From NCBI GenBank assembly GCA_947625625.1, contig CANQPC010000005.1:1-61215 (forward strand): a stretch of DNA of 61,215 bases, given 5' to 3'. Made by a program: the position numbers and the translations under genes. Below are positions 5,361-61,033 of this stretch, piece by piece (within the stretch, counting starts at the first letter, position 1; each line of letters begins with the position of its first letter). The notes beneath the pieces are model-generated. The model searched no databases. It saw nothing but the letters and a program-made list of their open reading frames with translations, and was not told where the DNA came from. The stretch is from an uncultured Bacilli bacterium (GTDB taxonomy: Bacteria > Bacillota_I > Bacilli_A > RF39 > UBA660).

Positions 5361-6179
5361 TTACAAATTTTTGACTTTAACTTTGTGATGATTATCTTCT
5401 TCAAAGCATTCATATGATGACGATAAGTCAAGATTACTTAAAATTATTCCTAGATTACTATCGAGAGGAATTTCAGGATGCTCTTTTAAATATGATGAAA
5501 ATACTTCACCAAAAAAATAACGTAAATGATAATCGACGACATTAGGAACATTTCTTTTCATAAGTCTACTAACGATTTGGGAATCAAATTTTTTCTCATT
5601 TAGTTTTCCTTTTAAGTAAAGCTTTTCGTAGTAATATTCATAAAGAGCGGATTCTAAATGTCTTCGAGCAAAATATAGTCTATTATTTTGCGTTACATCT
5701 ATTAAAGATGTATATGCTGGTGATATATTTTGTAAATAGTTAACATAAGCATTTTCAATAGCACGAGGAAATACTTCGGCAAAAATAGTATAATGATCGT
5801 CAATAATATGGGGAGTTAAATTTCTATCAATGTAATGACTTAATTCATGAGCGAAAAGAAAATAATCGTAACTACTTTGATGAGGAGAAATATAGGCTTT
5901 GTTGGAATTAATATTAACGTAAGAGTCTTTTAAATCATTACTGATGACAATTCTTCCTCTACTTAATCCATCCATGATTATTTTGTAGTAATCGATATTA
6001 TATTCACGGTAAAAGTTTAATAATGTTTCAAGACTAAATGGAATATCGGCATTATAAGATATATACTTCCTCTTAGGAAACTGTTTGTAATATTTTTTTA
6101 TTTCTTTTGGAGAAAGATATTTTTCCATTTTGACTTGCTCTTCAATTTTTTGTAAAAAGTTTATATATTCTTCATTCAT
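5361..6179 (-). CDS. Hypothetical protein with HExxH zinc-peptidase-like motif
   Basis: FAHELSH followed by FAEVF (possible third ligand). Confidence 0.5.
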   Translation of the reverse strand: MNEEYINFLQKIEEQVKMEKYLSPKEIKKYYKQFPKRKYISYNADIPFSLETLLNFYREYNIDYYKIIMDGLSRGRIVISNDLKDSYVNINSNKAYISPHQSSYDYFLFAHELSHYIDRNLTPHIIDDHYTIFAEVFPRAIENAYVNYLQNISPAYTSLIDVTQNNRLYFARRHLESALYEYYYEKLYLKGKLNEKKFDSQIVSRLMKRNVPNVVDYHLRYFFGEVFSSYLKEHPEIPLDSNLGIILSNLDLSSSYECFEEDNHHKVKVKNL

Positions 6180-11262: not shown

Positions 11263-12696
11263 TTAATATTGTATACCCCAAATAACTAATTCTTTAGCGG
11301 GCTTACCGCAGACAATACATTTATCGTCTACTTTTTCTTCTTCAAAAGGAATACATCGTGACTTGCATCCTCTTATTTCTTTAATTTTTTCTTCACATTT
11401 AGAGTCGCCACACCACATAGCTTTGACGAAGCCTGGATGAGTATTTATAATATCTTTAAACTGCTCTAAATCTGTCACTGTATAAGTCATTTCTTCTCTT
11501 CTTCGAAGAGCACGGTCGTACATATCTCTTTGAATATCTTCAAGTAAAATGCTGACATCTTTTACGATATCGGTATTAATAAATACTTCACTCTTCTCGC
11601 GCGTATCTCTTCTTGCCAAAGTTATAATACCTTTCTCTAAATCTCTCTTTCCAATTTCGATTCGAACGGGAATACCATTAACTTCGGCTTCGGCAAATTT
11701 AAAGCCCGGTGACTTATCGCTATTATCGATATATGATTCAATTCCCGAAGCATTTAATTTTTCTAGGTAATCATGAGCTAAACTTAATACCTCTAAATCT
11801 TCACCAATAGGAATAATAACTACTTTTTTAGGAGCTATTTTAGGAGGTAAAACTAACCCATAGTCATCAGAATGAACCATGATTAGAGCTCCGATCATCC
11901 TCGTCGTAACTCCCCATGAAGTTTGATATGGGTAATCGTATTTATTTTCTCGATTTAAATATTTAATATCGTAAGCTTTAGAAAACTTTTGTCCGAAATA
12001 ATGACTAGTTCCCGATTGCAAAGCAACTCCATTATACATGAGTGCTTCGACAGTATAAGTATATTCGGCACCGGCAAACTTTTCCTTTTCGGTTTTTTTG
12101 CCAACGATACTAGGTATAGCTAAATATTCGTGAAAAAAATCATTATAGATATTTAACATTCGAAGAGTCTCTGCTTCGGCTTCAGCCTTGCTTTCATGAA
12201 TTGTATGTCCTTCCTGCCATAAGAATTCACGACTTCGAAGGAATGGTCTCGTCTCTTTTTCCCAGCGGAGGACATTACACCACTGATTATATAATTTAGG
12301 AAGATCACGATAAGACGATATGGTACTTGCATAGTAATCACTAAATAGTGTCTCGGAAGTTGGTCTAATACATAATCTTTCTTCGAGTTTTTTAGTTCCA
12401 CCTTCGGTAACCCATGCTACTTCGGGAGCAAAACCTTCGACTAATTCTCCTTCTTTTCTGAGAAGATTTTCGGGAATTAACAAAGGCATATAGACATTAA
12501 CGTGTCCGGTCTCTTTGAATTTTTGATCGAGAATACTTTGCATTTTTTCCCATATTGCATAACCATTTGGTTCGAAGACCGTACATCCTTTAGTATTAGA
12601 ATAACTAGCTAAGTGAGCTACCCTTACAATATCGGTATACCATTTAGCAAAATCTTTATCTCTACTAGTTATTTCCTTATTCTGTTTGTCATTCAT
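11263..12696 (-). CDS. proS: Prolyl-tRNA synthetase, archaeal/eukaryote-like type
   Basis: GFAPEVAWVT, IRPTSET, RPFLRSREFLWQEGHT, QTSWGVTTR, C-terminal Cys/Zn domain. Confidence 0.96.
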   Translation of the reverse strand: MNDKQNKEITSRDKDFAKWYTDIVRVAHLASYSNTKGCTVFEPNGYAIWEKMQSILDQKFKETGHVNVYMPLLIPENLLRKEGELVEGFAPEVAWVTEGGTKKLEERLCIRPTSETLFSDYYASTISSYRDLPKLYNQWCNVLRWEKETRPFLRSREFLWQEGHTIHESKAEAEAETLRMLNIYNDFFHEYLAIPSIVGKKTEKEKFAGAEYTYTVEALMYNGVALQSGTSHYFGQKFSKAYDIKYLNRENKYDYPYQTSWGVTTRMIGALIMVHSDDYGLVLPPKIAPKKVVIIPIGEDLEVLSLAHDYLEKLNASGIESYIDNSDKSPGFKFAEAEVNGIPVRIEIGKRDLEKGIITLARRDTREKSEVFINTDIVKDVSILLEDIQRDMYDRALRRREEMTYTVTDLEQFKDIINTHPGFVKAMWCGDSKCEEKIKEIRGCKSRCIPFEEEKVDDKCIVCGKPAKELVIWGIQY

Positions 12697-14760: not shown

Positions 14761-17700
14761 TTATTTGTTCTCCTCTATCTTTTCGAGCTTTATTCCAACT
14801 TCATAATCATTTATTTTAATTTTATCTGATAGATTTTCTTTTTCATAAATATTAATAGTTAGAGTCTCTCCTTTAATCATATCTAAATAATTATTAATAT
14901 GTTTCATATATTCACTATCGGCATCTAAATACATATTAATACGATCCATAATATCAAAATTTAAATTTTTACGAAGCTGTTGTACTTTCGATATTGTCTC
15001 TCTAGCTAGTCCTTCCTCTAGTAAATCGGAAGTGATAGTCGTATTTAGAATAACAAACTTATTATTATCCATTCCGACACTAAAGCCTTCCTTCGAAGAT
15101 ATTCTAATATCGACCATATCTTTCGTAACATCATATTTAGTATTATCGATAGTCATTTCAATTGTCATATTATTTTCTAGTTTGGTAATTTCTTCAGTAG
15201 TAAGAGTTAATAATTTTTCTTGAAATTCTTTAATATTTTTACCAAAGATTTTACCTACTTCTTTAAAATTAGGTTTTACTAAGAAATTCATGTATTCATT
15301 TAATTCAGATAAGAATATTACTTCTTTGACATTTAATTCTTCTTTAATTAGTGAAGTTAAATTTCCAATTATTTTTTCTTCCCTTACATCTAAAAGAATT
15401 TCACTAAGAGGCTGTCTTACCTTTATTTTAGCTTCTTCACGGACATTTCTTCCGAGACTTATCAAATCTCTTACTAAATCCATCTTTTCTTCTAATTGTA
15501 AGTTAATTAACTTTTCATCATAAGAAGGAAAATCACTTAGATGAACGGATACTTCGCCAGTTAAATTTTGATAGATCTCTTCACTGATATAAGGCGTAAT
15601 TGGTGCTATTACCTGAGATAGGCCTACTAAAACATCATAAGTGGTCTTATAGACACTTTTCTTTGATAAGGTAAGCTCTCCACCCCAGAATCTATCTCTA
15701 TTTCTTCTAATGTACCAATTAGATAAATCTTCCGAAACAAAGTATGTGAGTGTTCGGACAACTTTATTAAGATCAAATTCTTCATAAAAAGTTGTAACAT
15801 CCTTAAGTAATTTATTGTATTTCGATAGAAGCCACTTATCAATTTCTTCCAAGTCTTCATATTTGACATCTAGCATTTTGGTATCTATTTTATCAATATT
15901 AGCATAAGTTACGAAGAATGAATAAGTGTTACGAAGGGGATTAAAGAACTTAGAATATACTTCTTTTAAGCCATCAATATCGAATTTTAAAGGCGTCCAA
16001 GTCGGAGATACATAAGGAAGATAAAACCTTACCGTATCCGCTCCATGTTCTCGCATTGCCGTAAATGGTTCGACAATATTGCCTCTAGATTTACTCATCT
16101 TCTTGCCTTCGGCATCGAGAAGTAAGTCGTTTACTAAAACGTTTTTATATGGCGAGCAGCCTTTTACAAAGGTCGATATGACAAGTAATGTATAAAACCA
16201 TCCTCGCGTCTGGTCGATACCTTCGGCAATGAAATCCGCTGGAAACTGACTTTCCCATAATTCTTGATTTTCAAATGGATAATGATACTGGGCAAATGGC
16301 ATTGATCCTGAATCGAACCAGCAGTCTAAAACATCAGGTATTCTAGTCATTTCTTTACCACATTTCGGACATTTTAAATGAATATTATCGATATATGGCT
16401 TATGTAAGTCTAACGATTTATCATCAATTTTACAAGTTGCCTTCTCTTTTAATTCTTCTATTGAGCCAATCATTTCCGCATGACCGCATTCACACTTAAA
16501 ATATGGAATTGGAGCTCCCCAATATCTCGTTCGCGATACAGCCCAGTCTTTGGCATTCATAAGCCAGTTATTGAATCTCTTAACGCCAACATACTCAGGA
16601 TACCAATTAACTTTACTATTAGCCTCTACTAATTTATCGCGGAATTTTGATACGGCTATGTAGTAACTTGGCATTGTATAGTATAAAAGAGGACTATCAC
16701 ATCGCCAGCAGTGAGGATACTCGTGACTTAATTTTTGCTTTTTAAATAATTTATCATTTTCTTTTAAGTATTTAATTACTTCGAGGTCAGCATCAAAGAC
16801 GAGCATTCCTTGCCATGGTCCTTCTTTATATGTTCCGTCTAATCCAACGGGATTTACATAAGGAAGATTATATTCTTTGCCGATACGTGAGTCATCTTCA
16901 CCAAAAGCAGGAGCAATATGAACGATACCGGTACCATCTTCCATCGTTACATAATTATCACAAGTGACAAAGAAAGCTTTTTCTTTAACATCAATAAAAG
17001 GAAGTAATTGTTCGTATTCGGTAAATTCTAACTCTTTACCTTTAAATGTTTCGAGGACTTTAACTTCATCACCAAGTACGCGTGAAACTAGAGCTTTTGC
17101 TAGTATAAACTTATATCCCTGTGATTCTACTTTAACGTAATCTTCATCTGGATTAACACATAATGCAACGTTTGAAAGAAGAGTCCAAGGAGTTGTCGTC
17201 CAAACCAAAAAGTATTCGTCTTTATCTTTCACTTTAAAAGGTACTATTACAGTATTTACATCAACCGTTTTATAGCCCTGTGCTACTTCGTGCGAAGCAA
17301 GACCAGTACCACATCTAGGACAATATGGTGTTACTTTTGTTCCTTCGTAGAAAAGGCCTTCTTCAAAGAATTTTTTTAGTATCCACCACTCTGTTTCAAT
17401 GTATTCATTTTTATAAGTAAGATAAGGATTGTCTGTATCGATAAACTGGCCCATCTTATGTGTAAGGTCAGTAAATGCTTTTTCATTTTCACGAACACTC
17501 TTTCGGCATTCTTCGTTAAATTTTTCAACTCCATATTCTTCGATATCTTTTTTTGACTTAAATCCTAATTTTTTTTCGACATGGTTTTCAATTGGAAGGC
17601 CATGGGTATCCCAACCAATTTTTCTAATTATCTTGTAGCCTTTCATAGTCTTATATTTACAGATAATATCTTTAAGATTTTTTCCAACCATGTGATGTAG

Positions 17701-17862
17701 TCCTGGAAAACCATTAGCAAAAGCGGGTCCATCATAGAAAACCCAAGGCTCTTTTCCTTTTTCAATCGACTTATTTAGAACGTCAATTTTTTCCCAATAA
17801 TCGATATATTTTTTCTCATTAACTTCATAGCTATCTTTACTTAACTCTTTAAAATTTTTCAT
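14761..17862 (-). CDS. ileS: Isoleucyl-tRNA synthetase, type 2 (eukaryote-like)
   Basis: FYDGPAFANG, GWDTHGLP, WTTTPWTL, KMSKS, SNWYIRRNR; 1033 aa. Confidence 0.96.
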   Translation of the reverse strand: MKNFKELSKDSYEVNEKKYIDYWEKIDVLNKSIEKGKEPWVFYDGPAFANGFPGLHHMVGKNLKDIICKYKTMKGYKIIRKIGWDTHGLPIENHVEKKLGFKSKKDIEEYGVEKFNEECRKSVRENEKAFTDLTHKMGQFIDTDNPYLTYKNEYIETEWWILKKFFEEGLFYEGTKVTPYCPRCGTGLASHEVAQGYKTVDVNTVIVPFKVKDKDEYFLVWTTTPWTLLSNVALCVNPDEDYVKVESQGYKFILAKALVSRVLGDEVKVLETFKGKELEFTEYEQLLPFIDVKEKAFFVTCDNYVTMEDGTGIVHIAPAFGEDDSRIGKEYNLPYVNPVGLDGTYKEGPWQGMLVFDADLEVIKYLKENDKLFKKQKLSHEYPHCWRCDSPLLYYTMPSYYIAVSKFRDKLVEANSKVNWYPEYVGVKRFNNWLMNAKDWAVSRTRYWGAPIPYFKCECGHAEMIGSIEELKEKATCKIDDKSLDLHKPYIDNIHLKCPKCGKEMTRIPDVLDCWFDSGSMPFAQYHYPFENQELWESQFPADFIAEGIDQTRGWFYTLLVISTFVKGCSPYKNVLVNDLLLDAEGKKMSKSRGNIVEPFTAMREHGADTVRFYLPYVSPTWTPLKFDIDGLKEVYSKFFNPLRNTYSFFVTYANIDKIDTKMLDVKYEDLEEIDKWLLSKYNKLLKDVTTFYEEFDLNKVVRTLTYFVSEDLSNWYIRRNRDRFWGGELTLSKKSVYKTTYDVLVGLSQVIAPITPYISEEIYQNLTGEVSVHLSDFPSYDEKLINLQLEEKMDLVRDLISLGRNVREEAKIKVRQPLSEILLDVREEKIIGNLTSLIKEELNVKEVIFLSELNEYMNFLVKPNFKEVGKIFGKNIKEFQEKLLTLTTEEITKLENNMTIEMTIDNTKYDVTKDMVDIRISSKEGFSVGMDNNKFVILNTTITSDLLEEGLARETISKVQQLRKNLNFDIMDRINMYLDADSEYMKHINNYLDMIKGETLTINIYEKENLSDKIKINDYEVGIKLEKIEENK

Positions 17863-18741: not shown

Positions 18742-20016
18742 TCATATTTTTTTTAAATAATCTAAAATGTCTTGTTTATTTATTAGATCTTTATTATTAG
18801 TTTTCAAATCCTCTATTTCATAATTTTCAGAATCATATTTATTACCTAACACAATTAGTTTTGGAGTCCCTAATACATATGCATCATTTATTCTATTTCC
18901 AATAGTTAAATTATCGCGATCATCAATAATAGCAGATACATTATTATCATTTAAATAATGATACAGTTCTTCTGCTTCTTCTTTATTTTTCTCATTATAG
19001 ATTATTTGAACTTTATATGGTGCTATATTATAAGGTAATACAAAACCTTTTACTGTGTTACCATCTTTTATTACACTATTTTCAATTATACAAGCGATTA
19101 TTCTTCCTAGTCCAATTCCATAGCAGCCCATATAGTATGGTTTCTTATTACCATCTTCATCCTTATAGAACAACTTCATACTTTCAGAATATTTTGTTCC
19201 CAGCTGAAAATTATTTCCCAGTTCTATCGTATTAAATTCTTGAAAATCATTTAAATTTTGAACTCCCAATTGCTTTAAATATTCTTCTTTATTAACTTGC
19301 TCTAATACTTCTTTGTTAATACCAATATCATTTTTTTCATTATATAATGTTTTATCTTCACCTAAATTTGTAATGGCTTGGAATTCTTCGGCAACTTTAC
19401 CACCGATAACTCCACTATCACTAACAGTAGGAATTATTTTAATTCCTAGTCTTTTAAAAATATTTAAATATACTTGGTGCATCAACTTATAGGTCTTTTT
19501 CATTTCTTCTTCATTCTTATCAAATGAGTAAGCATCCATCATTACAAAAGTTCTAGGTCTAAATAAATAACCTCTCGTTCTTATTTCCTTCCTAAATTTT
19601 TCTCCTATTTGATAATATATAGCGGGCAAATTTTTATAAGAACCTAGTCTATTAGCCCCAAATAAGCCCGCACATTCTTCCGCTGTTGGAGCAAGTCCAT
19701 ATTCCCCTAAGTTATTTTCTAATGTAAACATTATATCTCCATCTTTGGTATAAGTATCCCAACGATTAGATTGTATCCATATTTTTTTTGGTTGCAATTT
19801 AGGAAACTCTACTTGAATACATCCGACTTTATCTAATTCTTCAATTATAATATTTTCAACAATTCTTTCCAGTTTAGTCCATAAATTACCATAGCCATAA
19901 ATGCCACTTTCATATTGATATAATTCGCCTAATTTAAATAAAATGTCTTGTCCCGAATAACTTTTATCTACGTCATCGAGATTTATTTTTTTAATATTTA
20001 AATTACTTAATCTCAT
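18742..20016 (-). CDS. Second prolyl-tRNA synthetase-like protein, bacterial type lacking INS editing domain
   Basis: LAPTAEE, YQIGEKFRKEIR, MDAYSF, IELGNNFQLGTKYS, MGCYGIGLGR; 424 aa. Confidence 0.85.
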   Translation of the reverse strand: MRLSNLNIKKINLDDVDKSYSGQDILFKLGELYQYESGIYGYGNLWTKLERIVENIIIEELDKVGCIQVEFPKLQPKKIWIQSNRWDTYTKDGDIMFTLENNLGEYGLAPTAEECAGLFGANRLGSYKNLPAIYYQIGEKFRKEIRTRGYLFRPRTFVMMDAYSFDKNEEEMKKTYKLMHQVYLNIFKRLGIKIIPTVSDSGVIGGKVAEEFQAITNLGEDKTLYNEKNDIGINKEVLEQVNKEEYLKQLGVQNLNDFQEFNTIELGNNFQLGTKYSESMKLFYKDEDGNKKPYYMGCYGIGLGRIIACIIENSVIKDGNTVKGFVLPYNIAPYKVQIIYNEKNKEEAEELYHYLNDNNVSAIIDDRDNLTIGNRINDAYVLGTPKLIVLGNKYDSENYEIEDLKTNNKDLINKQDILDYLKKI

Positions 20017-45573: not shown

Positions 45574-46980
45574 ATGGTTAACTGTCATAAAAAATGTACT
45601 AATAAGATAGATACAAATTGCTGCTTTCCCTCACCTATTTCACAAATATTTGTTCCTCCTGGAAAAGTAGGACCTACAGGTCCAATGGGTCCTACGGGGC
45701 CAGAAGGAAGAGGAATTAATATTTTAGGTTCTTATAGTAATTTAGAAGAACTTACTGAAAATCATCCGACTGGTAATATAGGAGATGCTTATATAGTTGG
45801 TGATGATTTATATATATGGTCTTCGAATAATAGTTGGAGTAATGTCGGCACTATTAGAGGACCTAAAGGCGATCCTGGTGTGCGAGGAGAACAAGGTATT
45901 CAAGGAGAAATAGGACCCCAAGGAGAAAGAGGTCCTCAAGGCGAGCAAGGCATTCAGGGTATTCAAGGACTACAAGGGGAAAGAGGTCCACAGGGAGAAC
46001 AAGGTCCGATGGGAGAGCAAGGACCAATGGGAACTCCCGGCACTAGCGTAACTATTTTAGGTTCTTATGATACTCTAGAGGCTCTTAAAAATGATAATCC
46101 TATCGGCAAAGTTGGAGATAGCTACTTAGTTGGCGGTAATCTATATGTATGGTCGGAATCAAAACAAGAGTGGATCGACGTGGGACTTATAAAAGGTCCC
46201 AAAGGAGACCAAGGGATTCAAGGAATGGCCGGACTGCAAGGAGAAAGAGGACCGCAAGGAGAACAAGGGCCTCAGGGAATTCAGGGCATTCAAGGACCGA
46301 AAGGCGACCAAGGAATTCAAGGAATACCTGGACCTCAAGGACCTATAGGACCACAGGGAGAACAAGGACCACAGGGCCCTAAAGGAGAGATGGGAGAAAT
46401 GGGATTTCCTGGGATTCAAGGGCCAAGAGGAGAACAAGGACCGAAAGGAGAACCTGGTATCGAAGGACCCCAAGGAATGCCCGGACCATTAGAAATACCG
46501 ACCGCTTACTTCGTAACATTTAACGAAGGATTTCCCAATGGTGGATTTGCTGTTCCTTCCAATACAAGAATACCTATCGATTTAAAAGCATACGATACAA
46601 CTGGCGATTTTGTTCTCAATAGCGATACCAATACAATTACCTTTCTCCATAGCGGCATTTATCTTATCAATTTTACCGTCGAAGCGCGCGTTATTAATTC
46701 TACTCTCTTTAATGAAGATTTAGATATCGTATGTGTCGGTTTTAAAAAAGTTGATGAAGAAACCGTATATGCAGGAGCTAGTGTTTGGTGTGATTTACAG
46801 CCGGGAGTCGCGGTAGTAGCAAGGGGAATTGTTCCGACAGTTTTAGATAATGAAGAATTTGAAATTCTTAATTTAGGTCTCAATACAATTTACCTTAATA
46901 GTCCTGGTAAAAATCGTATCTATTCAGAGTCTTCGTTTGTCAATACTGTTCTATCGATGACAATTCAAAAGTTAAAATAA
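45574..46980 (+). CDS. Collagen-like (GXY) surface/exosporium protein
   Basis: Two long GXY tracts, duplicated ILGSY...GD.Y.VG..LY.WS...W..VG.I.GPKG module, Cys-rich N-terminus, globular C-terminus. Confidence 0.88.
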
Positions 46981-47136
46981 AAATATCTACTTATTTTTTA
47001 AGTAAATATTCAATAAAAGCTAGTACATGATAGAATACACTTCCGAAAGGATGTGTTTTTCTTATACTAGCTTCTTTATCATCTAATATCTTTTCCTTAC
47101 AAGATATTTTCATAACTTTTAATCGTTATCATCCTA

Positions 47137-51323: not shown

Positions 51324-51866
51324 TTATAATGTCATCAAATCTTTTTCTTTATCTTTTAATTTTTCTTCGATAATTTTGTTATATTCGTTAATTAGATCTT
51401 GAACTTTCGTTTCTCCTCTTTTTTCTTCATCTTCGGGAAGTTTAAGGGCTTCCAAGCTTCGATTAGCATCTTGTCTAATATTACGAAGAGAAATTTTAGC
51501 TTCTTCCGCTAGTTCTTTTACTTGTTTAACGAGCTCTTTTCGGCGGTCTTCAGTAAGAGGTGGTATAACAATAAAGACAGCTTCGCCATTATTATTTGGT
51601 GTGACGCCAAGATTAGCTTCAAATATTGCTTTTTCGATAGCTCCTAGAGCACTTCTATCAAATGGCTTAACAGATAGTTGTCTAGCTTCTGGTACAGATA
51701 TTGTTGCTAAGCTTTTGATAGGAGTTGGAGTACCATAATACTCTACCATTACTCCATCTAACATCGAAGGACTAGCTCTTCCTGCTCGAACATTAGTAAA
51801 TTTATTTTCCAATGCTTCGATACTAGTTTTCATTTTTTCTTCCGTTTTACTTAAAATTTCATCCAT
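51324..51866 (-). CDS. frr: Ribosome recycling factor
   Basis: VRAGRASPSMLD, YYGTPTP, IPPLTEDRRKELVK, RNIRQD. Confidence 0.97.
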   Translation of the reverse strand: MDEILSKTEEKMKTSIEALENKFTNVRAGRASPSMLDGVMVEYYGTPTPIKSLATISVPEARQLSVKPFDRSALGAIEKAIFEANLGVTPNNNGEAVFIVIPPLTEDRRKELVKQVKELAEEAKISLRNIRQDANRSLEALKLPEDEEKRGETKVQDLINEYNKIIEEKLKDKEKDLMTL

Positions 51867-51962
51867 ATAATTTCTCCTTTTTTCTTTAATATATTGTATC
51901 ATAAACTGTCTTTAAAGTAAATATTTCAGCTTTATTTTAATAATGGTCCTATCTTTTACATT

Positions 51963-52575
51963 AAATAACTAATGGTAAATATTTATATAATAATTAAAGA
52001 CAACTAGAATTATCAGAATTATAAGTTACTCCAAGAGAATTTACATATACTTCAATCTTAGCTTCACTTACTTTAATCCAATTTTTATCTTTCCAGTACC
52101 AGTTAAAGTCATCTTTATTACTCAAATAAGAATTTTCAAAAATAATCGATTTAACGTTAAATAGTTTATATGGAATTCTATTAACAGCATAATTATCTTT
52201 AAAAGTATAGACACTTCCATCTAATTTTGAATATATTCTTTCAGTATCATAATCTCTTGCATAAAAGCGAACATGGCTTTCTTTTAAAGGATAAATATTA
52301 TTGAATTTGCTTACGATATTAAGTTCATTAGTTAGTTCATCTAAAGTAAGATAGCCGGGCAATAAAATTTCATAACCCATATAATTCGAATTACCACCGG
52401 CATTATGATGATTACTATATACTATTTTACTTACTACGCCATAATAGCCCATTTCATATGCTCTTCTTTGAAGGCGAAGAAGACTCTCATCTCCCAAGCC
52501 ATTACCATAAGTATCGGAGGTCCTTGTCATGTATACTTTAAGGCCATGACTTTCGTAGCGACATTTTTCATACAT
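51963..52575. repeat. 613-bp direct repeat, copy 1 (3' part of amidase gene plus trailer)
   Basis: Matches 54488-55100 except for three substitutions that I could find by eye. Confidence 0.93.
51994..52575 (-). pseudogene. Truncated duplicate of the amidase C-terminus
   Basis: Same as the last 193 aa of 54519..56207 except one residue; lacks the GHGG/E zinc ligands and an RBS. Confidence 0.8.
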
Positions 52576-52626
52576 AAAATATATTTATTACTCTCGAAAT
52601 AAATTAGTTCAAGTTTTCTATCATAT

Positions 52627-52700
52627 TGGAGGGCCTGATTGGATTTGAACCAACGATCAGGGAGTTGCAGTCCCATGCCTTACCACTTGGCTACAGGCCC
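52627..52700 (-). tRNA. tRNA-Cys(GCA), cassette copy
   Basis: GGGCCTG/CAGGCCC acceptor stem, CT-GCA-AC loop, GTTCAAATC, U73-CCA. Confidence 0.95.
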
Positions 52701-52762
52701 AAATTATAAATATATTATACAATATATTTATATTTTAAATTAATAATAACAAATAAAATTTT

Positions 52763-54211
52763 TTATCGAATCCTTACTTTTGGGGGAATATCAATATCCC
52801 ACTCAGTTGATTTATTGCCATCTTTAAGAATTATTCCTCTCTCAAGCAACTTATTTCTTATTTTGTCTGCCTCTAGCCAATTTTTTTCGTCTTTATAATG
52901 CTTTCTATTCAATATCATTTCATTTATTTCAGTTTCAGCAATATCATATAAAGCTAAATATTTATCCTTTATTTCTTTAATAACTTTGCTAGGGTTTTGC
53001 TGAAGTAATCCTAAAGTTGAATATACTTTTATTAAAGCATTTTTCATATCAACGACCTCTTGAATTTCATTTTTATTGATCATTTTATTCATCAAGTTCA
53101 CATATTCAAAGATATTTCCAATTGCTACAGAAGTATTAAAATCATTATCCATAGCTATTCTAAATTTTTTATCAATATTATTTAAATATTCAGAATTATC
53201 ATTTGGTTTATAGCCATTGCCTAAAAGATCAATTAAATAAAATAATTTATATATCATATATATTTTTGCTTCTTGCTGTTCAAACATCCCATCTACCACA
53301 TTCATATCAGAACGATAATTATTTTCTAATAAAGACATTCTTATTATTTCAAAATTATACTTTTTTAATAAATCTTCTAACAAAATTCCATTATTTAAAG
53401 ATTTACTCATTTTTTGGCCATTAACTTTAATCAATCCATTATGTAACCAATATCTGGAAAATTGTTTACCTGTTAAAGATTCACTTTGTGCTATTTCATT
53501 TTCATGATGAGGAAAAATTAAATCTTTTCCTCCACCATGTATATCTATTGTTTCCCCTAAATATTTCATGCTCATCGTCGAACATTCAATATGCCACCCA
53601 GGTCTTCCTAAACCCCAAGGTGAATCCCAAAAAATTTCATCATTTTTTGCGTTTTTCCATAAGGCAAAGTCTTTATCATCCAATTTACCAGGCTCAACGT
53701 TTTTCCTAACCCCAGATAAGCTATCATCAATTATTCTATTTGATAATTTACCATATTCTGAAAAAGAAGAAACTTTAAAAAATACATCTCCATTTTCAGT
53801 ACTATAAGCATGGCCTGTTTCAATTAATTTCTTTATAAAATCAATCATATCTGGAATACATTCAGTTGCTTTTGATTGAATTGTAGGTTTTTCCACTAAT
53901 AATTGTGACAGTTCGTGATCTATTTTTTTCATCATTTTATTTGCATATTCAGTAGGATTTACACCCAACTCACGGGCTTTAAGAATTATTTTATCATCAA
54001 CATCTGTATAATTTCTAACATATGTCACATCATAACCTATATATTCTAAATATCTTTTTATTACATCAAATATAATTGCTTGGTATGCGTGACCAATGTG
54101 TGCATCACCAGAAGCTGTTATACCACATGCATACATTTTAACTTTCCCATTTTCCAAAGGAATAAAATCTTCTTTTTTTCTATGTAAAACATTATAAACT
54201 TTTAAGCTCAT
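52763..54211 (-). CDS. cysS: Cysteinyl-tRNA synthetase
   Basis: YACG, HIGH, NYTDVDDKI, DFALWK, GRPGWHIECS, DLIFPHHENE, KMSKS. Confidence 0.95.
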   Translation of the reverse strand: MSLKVYNVLHRKKEDFIPLENGKVKMYACGITASGDAHIGHAYQAIIFDVIKRYLEYIGYDVTYVRNYTDVDDKIILKARELGVNPTEYANKMMKKIDHELSQLLVEKPTIQSKATECIPDMIDFIKKLIETGHAYSTENGDVFFKVSSFSEYGKLSNRIIDDSLSGVRKNVEPGKLDDKDFALWKNAKNDEIFWDSPWGLGRPGWHIECSTMSMKYLGETIDIHGGGKDLIFPHHENEIAQSESLTGKQFSRYWLHNGLIKVNGQKMSKSLNNGILLEDLLKKYNFEIIRMSLLENNYRSDMNVVDGMFEQQEAKIYMIYKLFYLIDLLGNGYKPNDNSEYLNNIDKKFRIAMDNDFNTSVAIGNIFEYVNLMNKMINKNEIQEVVDMKNALIKVYSTLGLLQQNPSKVIKEIKDKYLALYDIAETEINEMILNRKHYKDEKNWLEADKIRNKLLERGIILKDGNKSTEWDIDIPPKVRIR

Positions 54212-54355
54212 TTTTACCTCCCTAAATTTGAATTATTTAATTATATATAAATGAATAATAATTTTTGTCATTTTATATATTTTGCACATATTATACTATT
54301 ATTTTCTTTTAAAATCAACAATAGATTTTACCTTATTTATTTTTATATGACTAAG

Positions 54356-54458
54356 GACATTTTTACTAATTATTGACCAAATATTCATCTTATTAGTAGG
54401 GACATTTTCACTAATTATTCGTCGCCAAAAATAGAGACATTTTTTCTAATTATTCACA
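54356..54458 (-). mobile_element. Putative solo DDE-transposon/IS end (TGT plus three 19-bp subterminal repeats)
   Basis: GACATTTTnnCTAATTATT at 54356, 54401, 54436, then CACA at 54455-54458. Confidence 0.55.
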
Positions 54459-54487
54459 TATTTTTTACAATTTTTCTAATTTTTTGC

Positions 54488-55100
54488 AAATAACTAATGG
54501 TAAATATTTATATAATAATTAAAGACAACTAGAATTATCAGAATTATAAGTTACTCCAAGAAAATTTACATATACTTCAATCTTGGCTTCACTTACTTTA
54601 ATCCAATTTTTATCTTTCCAATACCAGTTAAAGTCATCTTTATTACTCAAATAAGAATTTTCAAAAATAATCGATTTAACGTTAAATAGTTTATATGGAA
54701 TTCTATTAACAGCATAATTATCTTTAAAAGTATAGACACTTCCATCTAATTTTGAATATATTCTTTCAGTATCATAATCTCTTGCATAAAAGCGAACATG
54801 GCTTTCTTTTAAAGGATAAATATTATTGAATTTGCTTACGATATTAAGTTCATTAGTTAGTTCATCTAAAGTAAGATAGCCGGGCAATAAAATTTCATAA
54901 CCCATATAATTCGAATTACCACCGGCATTATGATGATTACTATATACTATTTTACTTACTACGCCATAATAGCCCATTTCATATGCTCTTCTTTGAAGGC
55001 GAAGAAGACTCTCATCTCCCAAGCCATTACCATAAGTATCGGAGGTCCTTGTCATGTATACTTTAAGGCCATGACTTTCGTAGCGACATTTTTCATACAT
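54488..55100. repeat. 613-bp direct repeat, copy 2
   Basis: Matches 51963-52575. Confidence 0.93.
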
Positions 55101-56207
55101 TGAAACGGTAAGATTCATTTCTTTTTCATAAATATATTCGTTACTAGCTCCGGGATCACTTCCGCCGTGGCCGGGGTCAATTAGAATATCATACTGGTAA
55201 GAAAAGTCAGAAATATCTATTTTTATTTCATCAGTGTCATAGTTAAAAGTCACTAACCTATTACCTACTTTAGCTCTTTTAATTTTATCGATATAAGCAA
55301 GTTTACTTATTAATTTTTCTTTGCCATTAGAGTCAATATAGACAGTATAACTTCCATTTTCAACTTCTGATAAATCAATATTTCCGTTATACTTATTATT
55401 TCCTATATTTGTTAGTTCAAAAAGATAATTAGTATTTCCCTCTAAAGTTAACTGGTAATTACCATTATTATTCTTCTTATACCCTTCGATATAAAAACCT
55501 TTCGAGGTAAAATTATTACTGGTAACAGTATTATCGTAGTCAGTTACGACAAGTTCTTTCTTAACTTCTTTATTTTCATTATTATCGACACGTAACACTT
55601 CTTTAGGCTTATTTACAGTAACTTTTCTCTCGGTACTAGAAGTATTATTGCTACTATCGCTAACTTTATATATTAGCTTATACTCTCCCTCTTTGGAAGT
55701 ATCAACTTTACCTTCGATTATTATTTTATCAGTTAAATCACCATCATAATTGTCAGTAGCGGTTGCTCCTTCCTCTTCATATTCTTCGGTAGTAAGGCAT
55801 GTAATACTACTGCTACCATTTAAGGTAATCGTAGGTTTCGTACTATCGACAACAGTGACAGACCTCGAAGAAGTATACTTTACATTATCGAGAAGAAGAT
55901 AATATTCTATTTGATATTTACCTAAAACATTTAAATTTAATTTACTCGAATCAACTTTTACTTTATCGGTCATATCGATATTGTCGACTAAAACTTTATA
56001 TTTTGGTTCTTGATATTCACTACCAAATTCTATTTTATAATTTTTTTCTTCGTTAAAGACAAATATTACACTATGTTCGTTTCTTTTTTCTTTATATATA
56101 CGAAATGATATTATAGATAATATCGATAGCACTATAATAACGATAATTAAAACAAAAATAATTATTTTCTCTTTTTTGTGACTGCTAAATATTTTCTTAA
56201 TAGACAT
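54519..56207 (-). CDS. N-acetylmuramoyl-L-alanine amidase (Amidase_3) with TM anchor and Ig-like (DUF5011-type) domains
   Basis: IDPGHGGSDPGA, EKEMNL, MTRTSD, SNHHNA, IFENSYL; DSTKPTITLNG...ATDNYDGDLT. Confidence 0.88.
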   Translation of the reverse strand: MSIKKIFSSHKKEKIIIFVLIIVIIVLSILSIISFRIYKEKRNEHSVIFVFNEEKNYKIEFGSEYQEPKYKVLVDNIDMTDKVKVDSSKLNLNVLGKYQIEYYLLLDNVKYTSSRSVTVVDSTKPTITLNGSSSITCLTTEEYEEEGATATDNYDGDLTDKIIIEGKVDTSKEGEYKLIYKVSDSSNNTSSTERKVTVNKPKEVLRVDNNENKEVKKELVVTDYDNTVTSNNFTSKGFYIEGYKKNNNGNYQLTLEGNTNYLFELTNIGNNKYNGNIDLSEVENGSYTVYIDSNGKEKLISKLAYIDKIKRAKVGNRLVTFNYDTDEIKIDISDFSYQYDILIDPGHGGSDPGASNEYIYEKEMNLTVSMYEKCRYESHGLKVYMTRTSDTYGNGLGDESLLRLQRRAYEMGYYGVVSKIVYSNHHNAGGNSNYMGYEILLPGYLTLDELTNELNIVSKFNNIYPLKESHVRFYARDYDTERIYSKLDGSVYTFKDNYAVNRIPYKLFNVKSIIFENSYLSNKDDFNWYWKDKNWIKVSEAKIEVYVNFLGVTYNSDNSSCL

Positions 56208-56274: not shown

Positions 56275-56679
56275 TTATTTTTTCTTGCTATTCTTCTTTA
56301 ATTCATCTCTTATTTCTTCGAGAAGTAATACTTCTTCTCTCTTCTTTGGCGGCTCTACTTTTTCTTCTTCTTTTGGTCCTTTCTTTCTAGTAAGTTTATT
56401 TATTACTTTTACTAGTAAAAAGACACAAATGGCAATAATAAGGAAATTAATAATACTATTTAGAAAAGATCCGTAACGAATAGAAGCATCCCCGATTCTG
56501 AGAGTGAGACCGCTAAAATCAATTCCTCCCAAAATAACACCCATCATAGGCATCATCATATCACTGACAATGGAATTTACAATACCGCTAAAAGCAGTAC
56601 CAATTACGACACCGACAGCTAAGTCGACGACGTTTCCTCTTTCGATAAACTCTTTAAACTCTTTAAAAATATCCTTCAT
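56275..56679 (-). CDS. mscL: Large-conductance mechanosensitive channel
   Basis: EFKEFIERGNVVDLAVGVVIGTAF, YGSFLNSIINFLII, LLEEIRDEL. Confidence 0.97.
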   Translation of the reverse strand: MKDIFKEFKEFIERGNVVDLAVGVVIGTAFSGIVNSIVSDMMMPMMGVILGGIDFSGLTLRIGDASIRYGSFLNSIINFLIIAICVFLLVKVINKLTRKKGPKEEEKVEPPKKREEVLLLEEIRDELKKNSKKK

Positions 56680-56788
56680 TTTTTAATACTTCCTTTCTGT
56701 CATAATTATACAATAATTTCGATATTTTGTATATATTTTTTTCTTAATTTGAGAAAAGATTTTTCCCTATTAACTACTTTGAAAAAAA

Positions 56789-56829
56789 TTAGCAATTAGA
56801 CTTGACAATTGCTAATTTGCTGCTATAAT
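56789..56829 (+). promoter_or_regulatory. Sigma-A promoter of clpB overlapped by a CIRCE-like operator
   Basis: TTGACA (56802) and TGnTATAAT (56821-56829); TTAGCAATT-N9-AATTGCTAA at 56789-56815. Confidence 0.75.
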
Positions 56830-56856
56830 TATAGTTGTATAAAAGGAGGGAAATAT

Positions 56857-58968
56857 ATGAATATGAATAATCCTTATGAAGAGAATTTACAAAATCCATT
56901 AGAGAAATACGGACGAGATATTACTAAATTTGCTAAAGATGGTAAAATTGATCCTGTTATTGGACGTGATGATGAGATTCGTTCGATTACGCGAATATTA
57001 TCTCGTAAAACTAAAAATAATCCTGTATTAATTGGTGAACCCGGCGTTGGAAAGACCGCGATTGTGGAAGGATTAGCGCAAAGAATTGTCAAAGGGGACG
57101 TTCCTAATAGCTTGAAAGATAAAAAAGTATGGGAACTTGATATGGGCTCTTTAATAGCGGGTGCCAAGTATCGTGGAGAATTTGAAGAAAGACTAAAAGC
57201 AGTTCTAAAGGAAGTTAAAGATTCAGAAGGCGAAATTATTATGTTTATCGATGAGATTCACATGATTGTCGGATCAGGGAATGCAGAAGGAGCAGTCGAT
57301 GCTGGAAATATGCTAAAACCGATGCTAGCTCGCGGAGAAATTCACTGTATTGGTGCTACTACTTTGAATGAATATCGTAAGTATATCGAAAAAGATGCAG
57401 CCTTAGAGCGAAGATTTCAAAAGGTCCTCGTAAAGGAGCCAACCGTTCTAGATACAATAACAATTCTTCGTGGTTTAAAATCAAAATTTGAAGTTTTTCA
57501 TGGTGTAACTATCAAAGATAAAGCTCTAATTAGTGCAGCTACCCTATCTGACCGCTACATAACTGATAGATTTTTACCTGATAAGGCAATCGATTTAATC
57601 GACGAAGCAGCCGCTACAATCAAAGTACAGATGGAATCGGTACCGACAGAATTAGATAATTTGGAAAGAACAATTATGCGACTCGAAGTTGAAAAAGAAG
57701 CTTTGCGTAAAGAAAAAGATGAACTATCAAAGAATCGCATTTTAGAAATTGAAAAAGAATTAGATAATCTTAAAGCTAGAGAAAAAGATCTCAAAGAAAG
57801 ATGGGAAGAAGAAAAAAATATTAATACTCTTATTAGTAAAAAGAAAGAAGAAATAGATAGTGCCACTTTTAAATTAGAAACAGCCGAAAATAACTATGAC
57901 TTAGAGGAAGCCGCTAAGTTAAGACATGGTACTATTCCAAGGCTTGAAAAAGAACTAGCGGAACTTGAAGAAAAAAATAAATCGGAAATTTTATCTGATA
58001 CGGTCGATGAAGAGAGTGTCGCCGCTATCATTTCTAAATGGACGAATATTCCTATAAGTAAACTAATTGGGGGCGAAAGGGAAAAACTTCTTCATCTCGA
58101 AGAAAATATGAAGAAAAGAGTTAAAGGTCAAGATAATGCCCTACATCTAGTTGCCGAAGCTATAATTCGTGCTCGAGCGGGTATTAAAGATCCAAAGCGT
58201 CCAATCGGTTCATTTATTTTTCTGGGTCCTACTGGTGTCGGTAAAACGGAAGTGGCTCGAACTTTAGCGGAGAATCTTTTTGATGATGAAAGACATATGA
58301 TTAGAATTGATATGTCCGAGTATATGGAAAGTCATTCTGTTGCAAGATTAATCGGGGCTCCTCCCGGATATGTGGGTTACGACGAAGGAGGACAGCTAAC
58401 CGAAGCAGTCAGAAGAAATCCATATTCAATTATTCTTTTTGATGAAATTGAAAAAGCTCATCGTGATATTTTTAATGTTCTCTTACAAATATTAGATGAT
58501 GGAAGAATTACCGATGGTCAAGGAAGGACAGTCGATTTTAAAAACACGATTATTATTATGACTTCTAATTTAGGTAGCGAATATATTTTAGATAACAATA
58601 TCAATCGTGATGAACTTATTTCTAACGAACTAAAAAATACTTTTAAACCAGAATTTATTAATCGTATCGATGAAATAATCATCTTTAATTCACTATCAAA
58701 AGAAGTTATCAATGATATATTAACCAATATTATTAGCGAGATTGAATATCGTCTAAGAGATAAAAATATTCATCTTGTTATTACTGACAAGGCTAGAGAT
58801 TATATTATCAGTTCTTCATATGATGAAAAATATGGAGCAAGGCCAATTAAGAGATTCGTACAAAGAAATATTGAAACTTTAATTGCCAGTGCAATCATTA
58901 AAGATGAAATAAAATTTGGAAGCTCGATTACCATCGATTATGAAAACAATTTGCTTAAATTAAAATAA
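56857..58968 (+). CDS. clpB: ClpB chaperone lacking the N-terminal domain
   Basis: Two AAA+ modules ([16 protein letters not shown]), coiled-coil M domain with AAKLRHG; GGAGGG RBS before 56857. Confidence 0.93.
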
Positions 58969-60814: not shown

Positions 60815-60914
60815 TTCACTCAAATTTTAAAAATTTCTCGTATCATAAATTTACTTTTTTCATAAAATATATTGTATATTTTATTTAATTTTGTTATAAT
60901 AAATATGCAATGAC

Positions 60915-60988
60915 GGACCTATAGCCAAGTGGTAAGGCACGGGACTGCAACTCCCTGATCGTTGGTTCAAATCCGACTAGGTCCTCCA
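60915..60988 (+). tRNA. tRNA-Cys(GCA)
   Basis: GGACCTA/TAGGTCC acceptor stem, GCA anticodon, U73-CCA; TGTTATAAT upstream. Confidence 0.95.
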
Positions 60989-61033
60989 ATATGATAGGAA
61001 ACTCGAACTTTTGGGATTTCGAGAGTAATAAAT

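Follow-up and report, generated by a model that had tools for sequence, protein, structure and literature searches.

A foreign cysS–tRNA-Cys cassette bracketed by duplicated amidase sequence in the genome of an uncultured Bacilli bacterium

Gene order and repeat structure of the amidase–frr locus

The window analysed here (the whole stretch of 61,215 nucleotides, contig CANQPC010000005.1) belongs to the tiny genome of an uncultured gut bacterium (Bacilli) of the UBA660 lineage, a bin of 48 contigs that is 91.8% complete with 3.9% contamination. A cysS gene (52763-54211) and a tRNA-Cys gene (52627-52700) are enclosed in it by two direct repeat copies, R1 and R2. The order given in a preliminary description of this DNA (amidase, cysS, tRNA-Cys, a second copy of the amidase 3' part and frr, on the minus strand) was recovered in full. 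The features, in transcription order and followed by the resident tRNA gene, are:

56275-56679, minus strand: mscL
54519-56207, minus strand: intact cell-wall amidase of 562 aa with Ig-like and Amidase_3 domains (Pfam matches, translation)
54488-55100, minus strand: repeat copy R1, 613 bp; upstream (amidase 5') side native, novel joint at 54488/54487
54459-54487, minus strand: filler of 29 bp between R1 and the IS tip, no match to the native amidase-frr spacer
54349-54458, minus strand: solo terminal 110 bp of an IS1202-family IS, tip 5'-TGTGAA towards R1
52619-54348, minus strand: cassette core common to CAG:822 (promoter-like site, cysS, spacer holding another such site, tRNA-Cys, 8 bp)
54290-54318, minus strand: promoter-like site TTGATT-17-TATAAT upstream of cysS, consensus match only
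52763-54211, minus strand: cysS, 482 aa, of the "cassette" clade (PF01406, E = 2e-120; DALR_2)
52627-52700, minus strand: cassette tRNA-Cys (GCA), CCA encoded (ARAGORN; Rfam RF00005, 65.3 bits)
52583-52626, minus strand: tRNA trailer, a shortened copy of a hairpin repeat, then 7 bp (52576-52582) up to R2
51963-52575, minus strand: repeat copy R2; downstream side native (spacer, frr)
51994-52575, minus strand: 193-aa ORF in R2, equal to amidase residues 369-562
51324-51902, minus strand: frr, ribosome recycling factor, the native neighbour downstream of the amidase (PF01765, E = 3e-61)
60915-60988, plus strand: resident (native) tRNA-Cys

The proposed 613-bp duplication of host sequence around the two genes is confirmed by a gapless alignment of 51963-52575 (R2) with 54488-55100 (R1), which contains three mismatches (52037/54562, 52060/54585 and 52096/54621). 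All three fall inside the last 134 bp of the repeat, in agreement with the earlier count of three differences near the gene end; two are synonymous and one exchanges F and S at repeat codon 180, and their polarity relative to seven congener amidases is mixed. The copies are 99.5% identical, with a longest exact stretch of 479 bp, and identity breaks off sharply at both repeat ends. No other long repeat of the 1.16-Mb assembly is as well conserved, those of at least 300 bp being at most 97.9% identical. R1 comprises the final 582 coding bases of the amidase plus 31 bp. On its outer side each copy is continuous with native DNA, R1 running into the 5' part of the amidase and R2 into the native spacer and frr, and no microhomology was found at either novel joint (R1/insert or insert/R2). 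A Pfam scan of the 193-aa R2 ORF alone gave no match. The DPGHGG stretch of the amidase lies upstream of residue 369, and the R2 ORF, lacking it, is probably an inactive amidase fragment.

An exact stretch of 479 bp is difficult for short-read assembly, and the tandem arrangement could be an assembly reading of a mixed population, in which the majority of chromosomes would lack the insert (amidase-frr), and insert and repeat would form a separate circle or tandem multimers or be limited to a subset of cells; the assembler would then have followed a single route where the graph loops. With every difference confined to the last 134 bp, none can be phased to the context upstream; in combination with the exact stretch, an empty chromosome plus circle, or a strain mixture, would give the same graph. 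The fragmentation of the bin into 48 contigs is compatible with this, as is the finding that four runs from one rabbit-gut sample hold 53-73% of the sampled words each (a sequencing run of another study held 18%). However, a circle of 2.5 kb that has no replication gene would not be expected to last, and this assembly resolved other repeats within contigs. The exact R2 193-aa ORF is also on record on three contigs, and the exact frr product on a 2105-bp contig from another source, a hint that the region was built in another assembly too. Moreover, both novel joints must be real DNA, so the foreign insert beside amidase sequence is real either way. We consider a mixed population unlikely, and R1 and R2 presumably lie in one molecule as assembled.

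Composition and origin of the insert

The insert has a mosaic make-up and opens with a 110-bp IS1202-family end. This end is identical at 110 of 110 positions to the end of an intact IS on another contig (C9:36403-38196) and holds three 19-nt motifs, AATAATTAGWRAAAATGTC (54436-54454, 54401-54419 and 54356-54374), the count in the window being 3 versus 0.09 expected. The intact element is 1794 bp long, with TGTGAA...TTCACA ends and a perfect 26-bp flanking repeat; its transposase (451 aa; NF033594, 260 bits; cut-off 250) has an HTH region at the N terminus. These features place it in the IS1202 family and match the traits of the IS1202 group. The repeat end had earlier been described as capped by TGT: the TGT is real, as the 5'-TGT tip of the IS1202-family remnant, but it lies outside the repeat and starts 29 bp past its end.

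The portion of the family's description available to us (PMC10132070) gives TGT/ACA ends and long target duplications of 16-28 bp, and lists members with passenger genes. The cassette might accordingly be conceived as the remnant of an IS1202-family "transporter IS" with cysS and tRNA-Cys as passengers, placed by a transposase, with the 613 bp arising as an aberrant target duplication through uncoupled attack by the two ends. The identical IS end does adjoin the cassette, its inner side facing cysS, duplications in the family are long (26 bp, perfect, at the C9 copy), and GAAAAATGTC, a word that stands in the first bases of the repeat and has only 10 copies genome-wide, is similar to the central part of the IS-end motif. 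This motif-like word is nevertheless direct rather than inverted at the repeat start, the novel joint is found 29 bp beyond the IS tip, no second, inverted end follows the tRNA, and the insert carries no transposase gene; 613 bp is also more than 20 times the known duplication length of the family. In a pattern search across the genus, clustered copies of the AATAATTAGWRAAAATGTC-type motif (at least three together) occurred only in genome G000 and never beside cysS, and the CAG:822 locus (see below) contained no match. Transposition of this kind is very unlikely. The IS sequence, being a single truncated end 29 bp short of the joint, thus records where the donor DNA had been before and not the route of insertion.

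The remainder of the insert is occupied by the synthetase and tRNA genes: its ORFs of at least 60 aa are cysS and three short opposite-strand ORFs (the latter outside the profile scan), none of them integrase-sized. The cassette tRNA-Cys forms a cloverleaf with a GCA anticodon and, as had been noted, is unlike the other tRNA-Cys of the window. The two differ at 7 of 74 positions (67/74 identical), confined to position 26 and to positions of the acceptor and T stems, and in both a T precedes the encoded CCA, which we take to be the identity-element position. The resident gene has DNA matches of 85-96% in 26 of the 29 congeners, and in G001 a resident-type tRNA-Cys lies on one contig with the amidase. 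The label "att-like" given earlier to the trailer of the cassette tRNA did not hold. The trailer shares 85% identity with the resident tRNA-Cys region (60895-61033), also matches the trailer of a tRNA-Phe gene (contig C37) and the end of contig C3, and is a tRNA-trailer hairpin repeat of the genus type, cut off here ahead of the terminator hairpin. An integrase/att reading was rejected because the repeat is found after other tRNAs of the genome. The insert borders show no att duplication, the flanking repeat being amidase sequence, and neither an integrase nor a duplicated tRNA 3' end, as in an integrase-borne island at a tRNA gene, was found.

The same promoter-cysS-promoter-tRNA unit is present in an unrelated context in "Firmicutes bacterium CAG:822". 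The borders of homology are exact (54348 to 52619; blastn 85% over 1778 columns), both promoter-like stretches are conserved, and the neighbours of the CAG:822 unit (a 455-aa upstream and a 176-aa downstream ORF) have no homologs in this genome. The CysRS proteins of the two genomes share 90% amino acid identity, compared with 80% for ClpB, and the cassette tRNA-Cys matches its CAG:822 counterpart at 73 of 74 positions, compared with 62-67 for congener tRNAs of equal 74-nt length. CAG:822 additionally keeps a resident cysS and a second, native-type tRNA-Cys. The suggestion that synthetase and tRNA moved as a pair is upheld by this two-gene unit at another location (73/74 for its tRNA versus 67/74 for the resident gene), and sequence comparison supports a pair that is foreign to the genus and travels as a unit.

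The cassette CysRS scores 486 bits against TIGR00435 (cut-off 340) and 402 bits against PF01406 (cut-off 27) and aligns end to end with the solved CysRS 3tqo, 8qhp and 1li5. Its HIGH, KMSKS, CG-x-T, WHIEC and HHENE stretches match 3tqo and 8qhp (residues 1-472); which class I signature and zinc-site residues matter is presumed from E. coli CysRS. Comparison with the CAG:822 copy gave a dN/dS of 0.075 (dS 0.64), which points to selection on the enzyme and lends indirect support to its putative charging of tRNA-Cys with cysteine. The promoter-like site upstream of cysS has 10 of 12 consensus matches in a stretch conserved in CAG:822. An Rfam search with E up to 0.1 found neither a T-box nor any other RNA leader ahead of cysS, its matches being two tRNAs and one sub-threshold chance match.

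The cassette CysRS is of foreign origin. It is 42% identical to its best match in 40 relatives, and its clade falls outside both congener clades and apart from class-level relatives. None of the 29 congeners has this type, all cysS found in them sitting in two other clades, and among 300 other genomes sampled from the order it occurs in one. Metagenomes contain further cysS genes at 87-90% identity. Two clues to origin offered earlier proved uninformative. The gene had been called CG-poor, but cassette GC (27% at 53001-54000) is without contrast to the genome (27-31% per contig), and composition was rejected as a mark of foreignness. The variant CGITAS motif claimed for the enzyme is present (CGITAS...HIGH), but represents minor variation and says nothing of origin. 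A phage or plasmid vehicle was likewise rejected, with only distant matches (best phage record 51% identical, best plasmid record 45%) and no relatives in IMG/VR.

Native and alien cysS sites across the genus

Orthologs of the amidase (58-66% amino acid identity) occur in 7 of the 29 congeners. Among the seven amidase loci fetched, amidase and frr are both present in only five, and the frr of this genome is 81-86% identical to congener frr at the amino acid level. In G022, G001 and G013 the amidase is directly followed by frr (order mscL-amidase-frr-orf242), so the comparison with relatives suggested earlier did reveal an empty site, in three congeners. Small other ORFs lie between the two genes in the remaining two of the five (G011 and G021). 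This variability of the amidase-frr gap is the one point compatible with an old cassette, vertically inherited at the site and lost in the congeners, beside which the repeat would be an unrelated local duplication. Against this, G022 and G001, the closest relatives by ClpB and amidase, have an empty site and a native-type cysS, and the cassette CysRS clade stands apart from both congener clades and class-level relatives. The 99.5% identity of R1 and R2 and the 100% identity of the IS end to its C9 copy further indicate that the events are recent. An old cassette is close to refuted.

The native cysS of the congeners encodes 437 aa and is located in front of a Zn-peptidase gene, with a pseudouridine synthase gene on its other side in G020, G018 and G022. 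In this genome the flanking genes are 10 bp apart (C4:57328-58008 and 56637-57317), and the native cysS is missing from its conserved, assembled site. A native-type copy could lie within the missing part of the bin, though the syntenic site is assembled and empty. The proviso in the preliminary description that the cassette gene might be the sole, vertically inherited cysS in a conserved position does not describe this genome, and the search that it proposed for a second cysS was successful: another alien copy lies on contig C23 between T2SSF and YebC, which are adjacent (site empty) in 26 of 27 congener loci. The C23 enzyme (TIGR00435, 490 bits; PF01406, 385 bits) keeps the HIGH, KMSKS, CG-x-T, WHIEC and HHENE stretches, and the two CysRS of this genome are 41% identical to each other. 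No flanking repeat longer than 23 nt was found around the C23 gene. Contamination as its source was rejected, since the neighbouring YebC shares 77-88% identity with its congener counterparts and synteny holds in the flanks.

Variation of this sort extends across the genus, with four unrelated CysRS clades (30 species) and two ProRS types. The second proS of the window (18742-20016) was found in only 3 of 29 congeners, lending some support to the link drawn earlier between the cassette and a "ProRS islet". What is seen at cysS is a xenologous replacement of an essential aminoacyl-tRNA synthetase (aaRS) gene caught midway, clear and real, and ordinary in kind.

Route of insertion, meaning and comparison with known systems

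We find it reasonably probable that the foreign insert was acquired at amidase-frr by recombination, with duplication of 613 bp of amidase sequence, as one step of a CysRS replacement. Under this reading, a mosaic segment of 1912 bp (54487-52576), with a self-contained promoter, cysS, promoter and tRNA-Cys as its working part, would have entered between amidase and frr in this lineage by neither transposition nor an integrase. The insertion would have duplicated the final 613 bp of the amidase region, leaving each repeat copy with native DNA at one border and the insert at the opposite border. This could have come about through single-crossover (Campbell-type) integration of a circle carrying the 613 bp, or through a template switch in which replication moves to donor DNA and then returns, with the same end structure; circle integration fits the anatomy, and a one-step duplicative insertion does so equally. 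Recombination between R1 and R2 would excise the insert and restore the empty site. The ancestral cysS would have been lost from its conserved site, and the two alien genes (cassette and C23), both putatively active, would supply CysRS function.

The exchange of essential translation genes for foreign copies is usually inferred from trees long afterwards; here stages are on view in one genome and 29 congeners, with the ancestral cysS gone from its site and two alien copies at otherwise empty ones, the cassette copy keeping its joints, its co-transferred tRNA and a scrap of IS from its previous home. The locus offers a system for asking how an essential gene is swapped without a lethal gap and whether a co-transferred tRNA eases the swap. 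More speculatively, and in our estimate with rather little probability, promoter-cysS-promoter-tRNA-Cys could be a non-autonomous "translation module" circulating among gut Bacilli with tiny genomes, moved by pickup of host DNA, circles and homologous recombination and kept as a matched enzyme and tRNA that offer the host an escape from attack on CysRS or tRNA-Cys. If true, the escape would be from an inhibitor or a tRNA-cutting toxin hitting the resident CysRS or tRNA-Cys, and spread of the module would drive serial CysRS replacement in the genus (the four clades noted above).

Campbell-type integrants, such as those of suicide plasmids, are flanked by a direct duplication of the homologous stretch and are reversible. 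The insert is likewise bracketed by direct repeats, whose outer sides run on into native DNA, and would be reversible in the same manner; unlike such integrants, the locus has no vector, origin of replication or recombinase, and its end product could also result from template switching of the FoSTeS/MMBIR type, which can yield the same duplication with insertion. Synthetase genes that travel together with a tRNA gene include pylS-pylT (pyrrolysine), class I LysRS/tRNA-Other (Bacillus cereus) and ProRS-x/tRNA-ProA (Streptomyces). The cassette resembles these in that an aaRS gene and its tRNA gene are adjacent and common to genomes as a unit. In those cases decoding is altered or extended, or the identity rules are unusual, whereas the cassette encodes a standard CysRS and a standard GCA tRNA-Cys.

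With the IS1202 family, as far as its description in PMC10132070 extends, the C9 element shares a transposase with an HTH, TGT...ACA ends, inner repeated motifs resembling binding sites and a 26-bp duplication. The cassette includes 110 bp of one such end but, unlike a member of the family, has only this one truncated end beside it, 29 bp from the joint. Essential-gene replacement by horizontal transfer is clear here though not unprecedented, and no new kind of element is revealed. In the part of their survey available to us, Chaliotis et al. 2017 (PMC5388404) place CysRS among the synthetases that often have paralogs, with horizontal gene transfer as the main source. This genome similarly holds a distant second aaRS copy gained by transfer rather than duplication. 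Compared with the paralogs in that part of the survey, the intermediate state is visible here: the native gene no longer occupies its syntenic position, and two alien copies stand where congeners have empty sites, one copy with its own tRNA and its joints kept.

Structure of the amidase-frr locus

We examined the genome under study (G000) as a bin of 1.16 Mb in 48 contigs (~29% GC, completeness 91.8%, contamination 3.9%), and compared it with 29 other species genomes of the same genus (congeners). The window, 61,215 bp, makes up the entire contig C5. The genes of the locus are, in order of transcription:

56275-56679, minus strand, mscL
54519-56207, minus strand, amidase of 562 aa with Ig-like and Amidase_3 domains
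52763-54211, minus strand, cysS
52627-52700, minus strand, tRNA-Cys (GCA)
51994-52575, minus strand, ORF of 193 aa
51324-51902, minus strand, frr

The preliminary description placed cysS and its tRNA between two copies of a 613-bp 3' part of the amidase gene, and base-by-base comparison at an offset of 2525 bears this out. The first copy (R1, 54488-55100) and the second (R2, 51963-52575) are identical at 610 of 613 positions, with a sharp drop in identity at both ends and a longest exact stretch of 479 bp, and form the most identical long repeat of the assembly. Three differences had been noticed near the gene end; all fall within the final 134 bp (two synonymous, one F/S). R2 starts at an in-frame ATG, amidase codon 369, and the DPGHGG stretch of the catalytic domain lies upstream of this codon and is thus absent from R2. 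Since the 193-aa ORF alone also had no Pfam match, it is most likely a dead fragment.

Five pieces make up the 1,912-bp mosaic insert that separates the repeats; from the R1 side they are:

54487-54459, 29 bp, outside the insertion sequence (IS) tip
54458-54349, 110 bp, IS end
1730 bp, core resembling 'Firmicutes bacterium CAG:822', its first base directly after the IS fragment
44 bp, tRNA trailer, matching a tRNA-trailer hairpin repeat
7 bp, last before R2

The supposed 'TGT cap' of the repeat proved to be the tip of the IS fragment, which is identical at 110 of 110 positions to one end of an intact IS1202-family element on another contig (C9:36403-38196, 1,794 bp). The 451-aa transposase of this element passes the ISNCY model NF033594, its ends read 5'-TGTGAA...TTCACA-3' and each contains a 19-nt motif three to four times, and its target duplication is perfect over 26 bp, traits that agree with the IS1202 group as described in PMC10132070. 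In a pattern search of the genus, clusters of three or more motif copies occurred only in G000. Within its first bases the repeat contains GAAAAATGTC, a word present 10 times in the genome and similar to the core of the IS end motif; its orientation there is that of the motifs in the IS fragment.

Likewise, what had been called an 'att-like trailer' is a tRNA trailer repeat, found also after the resident tRNA-Cys (60989-61033), after tRNA-Phe on C37 (about 5560-5633) and at the end of C3 (65611-65660); the copy in the insert ends short of the repeat's terminator hairpin. This conserved trailer of two hairpins comes after several tRNA genes, often close to the end of a contig, and parts of it have matches at many places in congeners. 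Judged on ORF size, the insert holds no integrase-sized ORF, only three short opposite-strand ORFs besides cysS, and it contains no second IS end.

A full-length amidase orthologue was present in 7 of 29 congeners (58-66% identical), and at none of these loci was the site occupied by cysS or a tRNA. In the empty-site comparison proposed earlier, three of them (G022, G001, G013) showed the order mscL-amidase-frr-orf242 with an amidase-frr spacer of <100 bp; clpB lies upstream in G022, where the fetched stretch extends that far. Between amidase and frr, G011 (88 and 103 aa, L066 803-1381) and G021 (218 aa, L068 3204-3860) have small ORFs that differ, and so the spacer may be a recurrent landing site. 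In the remaining two loci frr lay beyond the fetched stretch.

Origin and pairing of the cassette CysRS and tRNA-Cys

Among 40 relatives, no CysRS was >42% identical to the cassette enzyme, and among 300 further sampled genomes of the order, one (G076) encoded this type, at 63% identity. A large protein collection held many relatives (62-90% identity), the few named ones being labelled as Mollicutes, Bacilli or Clostridia MAGs. The closest named genome was CAG:822 (90% amino acid identity, compared with 80% for ClpB between the same two genomes). DNA homology with CAG:822 spans 54348-52619, from 137 bp ahead of cysS through the gene itself, the spacer and the tRNA to 8 bp beyond. The neighbors differ, being in CAG:822 a TetR gene, a divergent class I synthetase-like ORF and unknown ORFs; neither the upstream synthetase-like ORF nor the downstream 176-aa ORF has a homologue in G000. 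The ORF directly upstream (455 aa, L026 5122-6489) resembles class I synthetase families only weakly (MetRS-type, E 1e-13).

The cassette tRNA is identical to its CAG:822 counterpart at 73 of 74 positions, versus 67 of 74 for the resident tRNA-Cys (60915-60988), in keeping with the earlier remark that the two tRNAs differ. The tRNA-Cys gene was read in 26 of the 29 congeners. Twenty of these genes have a length of 74 nt and match the cassette tRNA at 62-67 positions; the T-stem sequence of the cassette tRNA occurred in none of the 26. Besides its cassette, CAG:822 carries another cysS and another tRNA-Cys, the latter of native type. By these comparisons, the cassette enzyme and tRNA are foreign to G000 and move as a pair. 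The G000 and CAG:822 cassettes do not stem from a recent copying of one from the other (dS 0.64), and a dN/dS of 0.075 indicates that the enzyme is under strong purifying selection. No tRNA adjoins two close metagenome cysS genes (88% and 79% identical) or the G076 cysS, and the pairing therefore characterizes this sub-lineage within the clade. Phage, plasmid and IMG/VR records contained no close relative.

Synthetase replacement across the genus

A quick-search tree of 84 CysRS sequences (LG+G4) resolved four well-separated clades. Clade A (437 aa; 13 congeners, including one partial gene assigned by BLAST) is nested among class-level Bacilli relatives, and clade B (about 465 aa; 14 congeners, two of them partial, and the second CAG:822 copy) groups with Clostridia. 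One congener, G018, has cysS of both clades, and in three (completeness 68-89%) none was found at E of 1e-40 or better. In this tree, a phylogeny as proposed earlier, the cassette enzyme falls outside clades A and B. The search for a second cysS in G000 found one on C23; the two are 41% identical and represent two further clades, each composed only of metagenome or MAG sequences. Both products pass the curated CysRS model with signature stretches kept.

The clade A cysS precedes a Zn-peptidase gene in all six congeners checked, and in G020, G018 and G022 also follows a pseudouridine synthase gene. In G000 these flanking genes (C4:56637-57317 and 57328-58008) are 10 bp apart; the ancestral cysS is therefore gone from the assembled site, in what looks like a clean loss. 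The second alien cysS (C23:12868-14289, 473 aa) lies between T2SSF and YebC genes, direct neighbors at 26 of 27 congener loci with no room for a cysS between them. The contig is native, given that its YebC is 77-88% identical to congener YebC, and relatives of this cysS (65-75% identity) were found only among metagenome proteins. The final 38 residues of the C23 T2SSF product do not align with congeners. CysRS is thus undergoing replacement in this genus.

The preliminary description had linked the cassette to a ProRS islet, and this link is partly upheld: the pattern seen for CysRS recurs in ProRS. The window holds a type I gene (11263-12696, TIGR00408), matched in 25 of 29 congeners (most 83-87% identical, 70% in G006), and a bacterial-type gene (18742-20016, 424 aa), present at 70-72% identity in only 3 of 29: G011, G021 and G041, which are three of the four congeners lacking type I proS at E of 1e-60 or better. 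ProRS thus also seems to have been swapped within the genus, with G000 holding both types.

Two other window genes deserve mention. The ileS product (14761-17862) passes the TIGR00392 ileS model and scores 912 and 886 bits against the mupirocin-resistant MupB and MupA models, far under their 1900-bit cut-offs. A plus-strand ORF with collagen triple-helix repeats (45574-46980) lies in the window's one GC-rich patch (42% for 46001-47000).

Formation of the insertion and comparison with known cases

Placement by the IS transposase was considered and judged very unlikely: the left joint lies 29 bp outside the IS tip and one IS end only is present. On its outer side each repeat copy continues into native DNA, the signature of either of two routes. 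A single crossover could have joined the chromosome to a circle bearing the 613 bp and the insert, or a one-step duplicative insertion could have occurred, for example if replication switched template to donor DNA and then returned. Either route would need two illegitimate joints, and the two novel joints show no microhomology. The IS scrap (100% identical) and the repeat (99.5%) point to a recent insertion, and the trailer together with the scrap suggests that the segment's last home was a genome of the same kind as G000.

If R1 and R2 recombined, a 2,525-bp circle would be excised and an intact amidase-frr arrangement restored. Because the three differences all lie at one repeat end, an empty chromosome with a free circle, or a mixed population, would give the same assembly graph as an integrated segment. 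Database records include 3 contigs with an identical 193-aa product, and a 2,105-bp contig of another source encodes an identical frr product, which hints at independent assembly of this region. Under either arrangement, the foreign segment joined to the amidase, the vacated native cysS site and the second alien cysS are real.

Joint movement of a synthetase and its tRNA is familiar from special decoding systems. Synthetases that are paralogous or were acquired horizontally are common, and PMC5388404 names CysRS among the frequent cases. Members of the IS1202 family are known to make long target duplications and to carry passenger genes (PMC10132070). The value of the G000 cassette lies in showing an essential-gene swap at several of its stages simultaneously.
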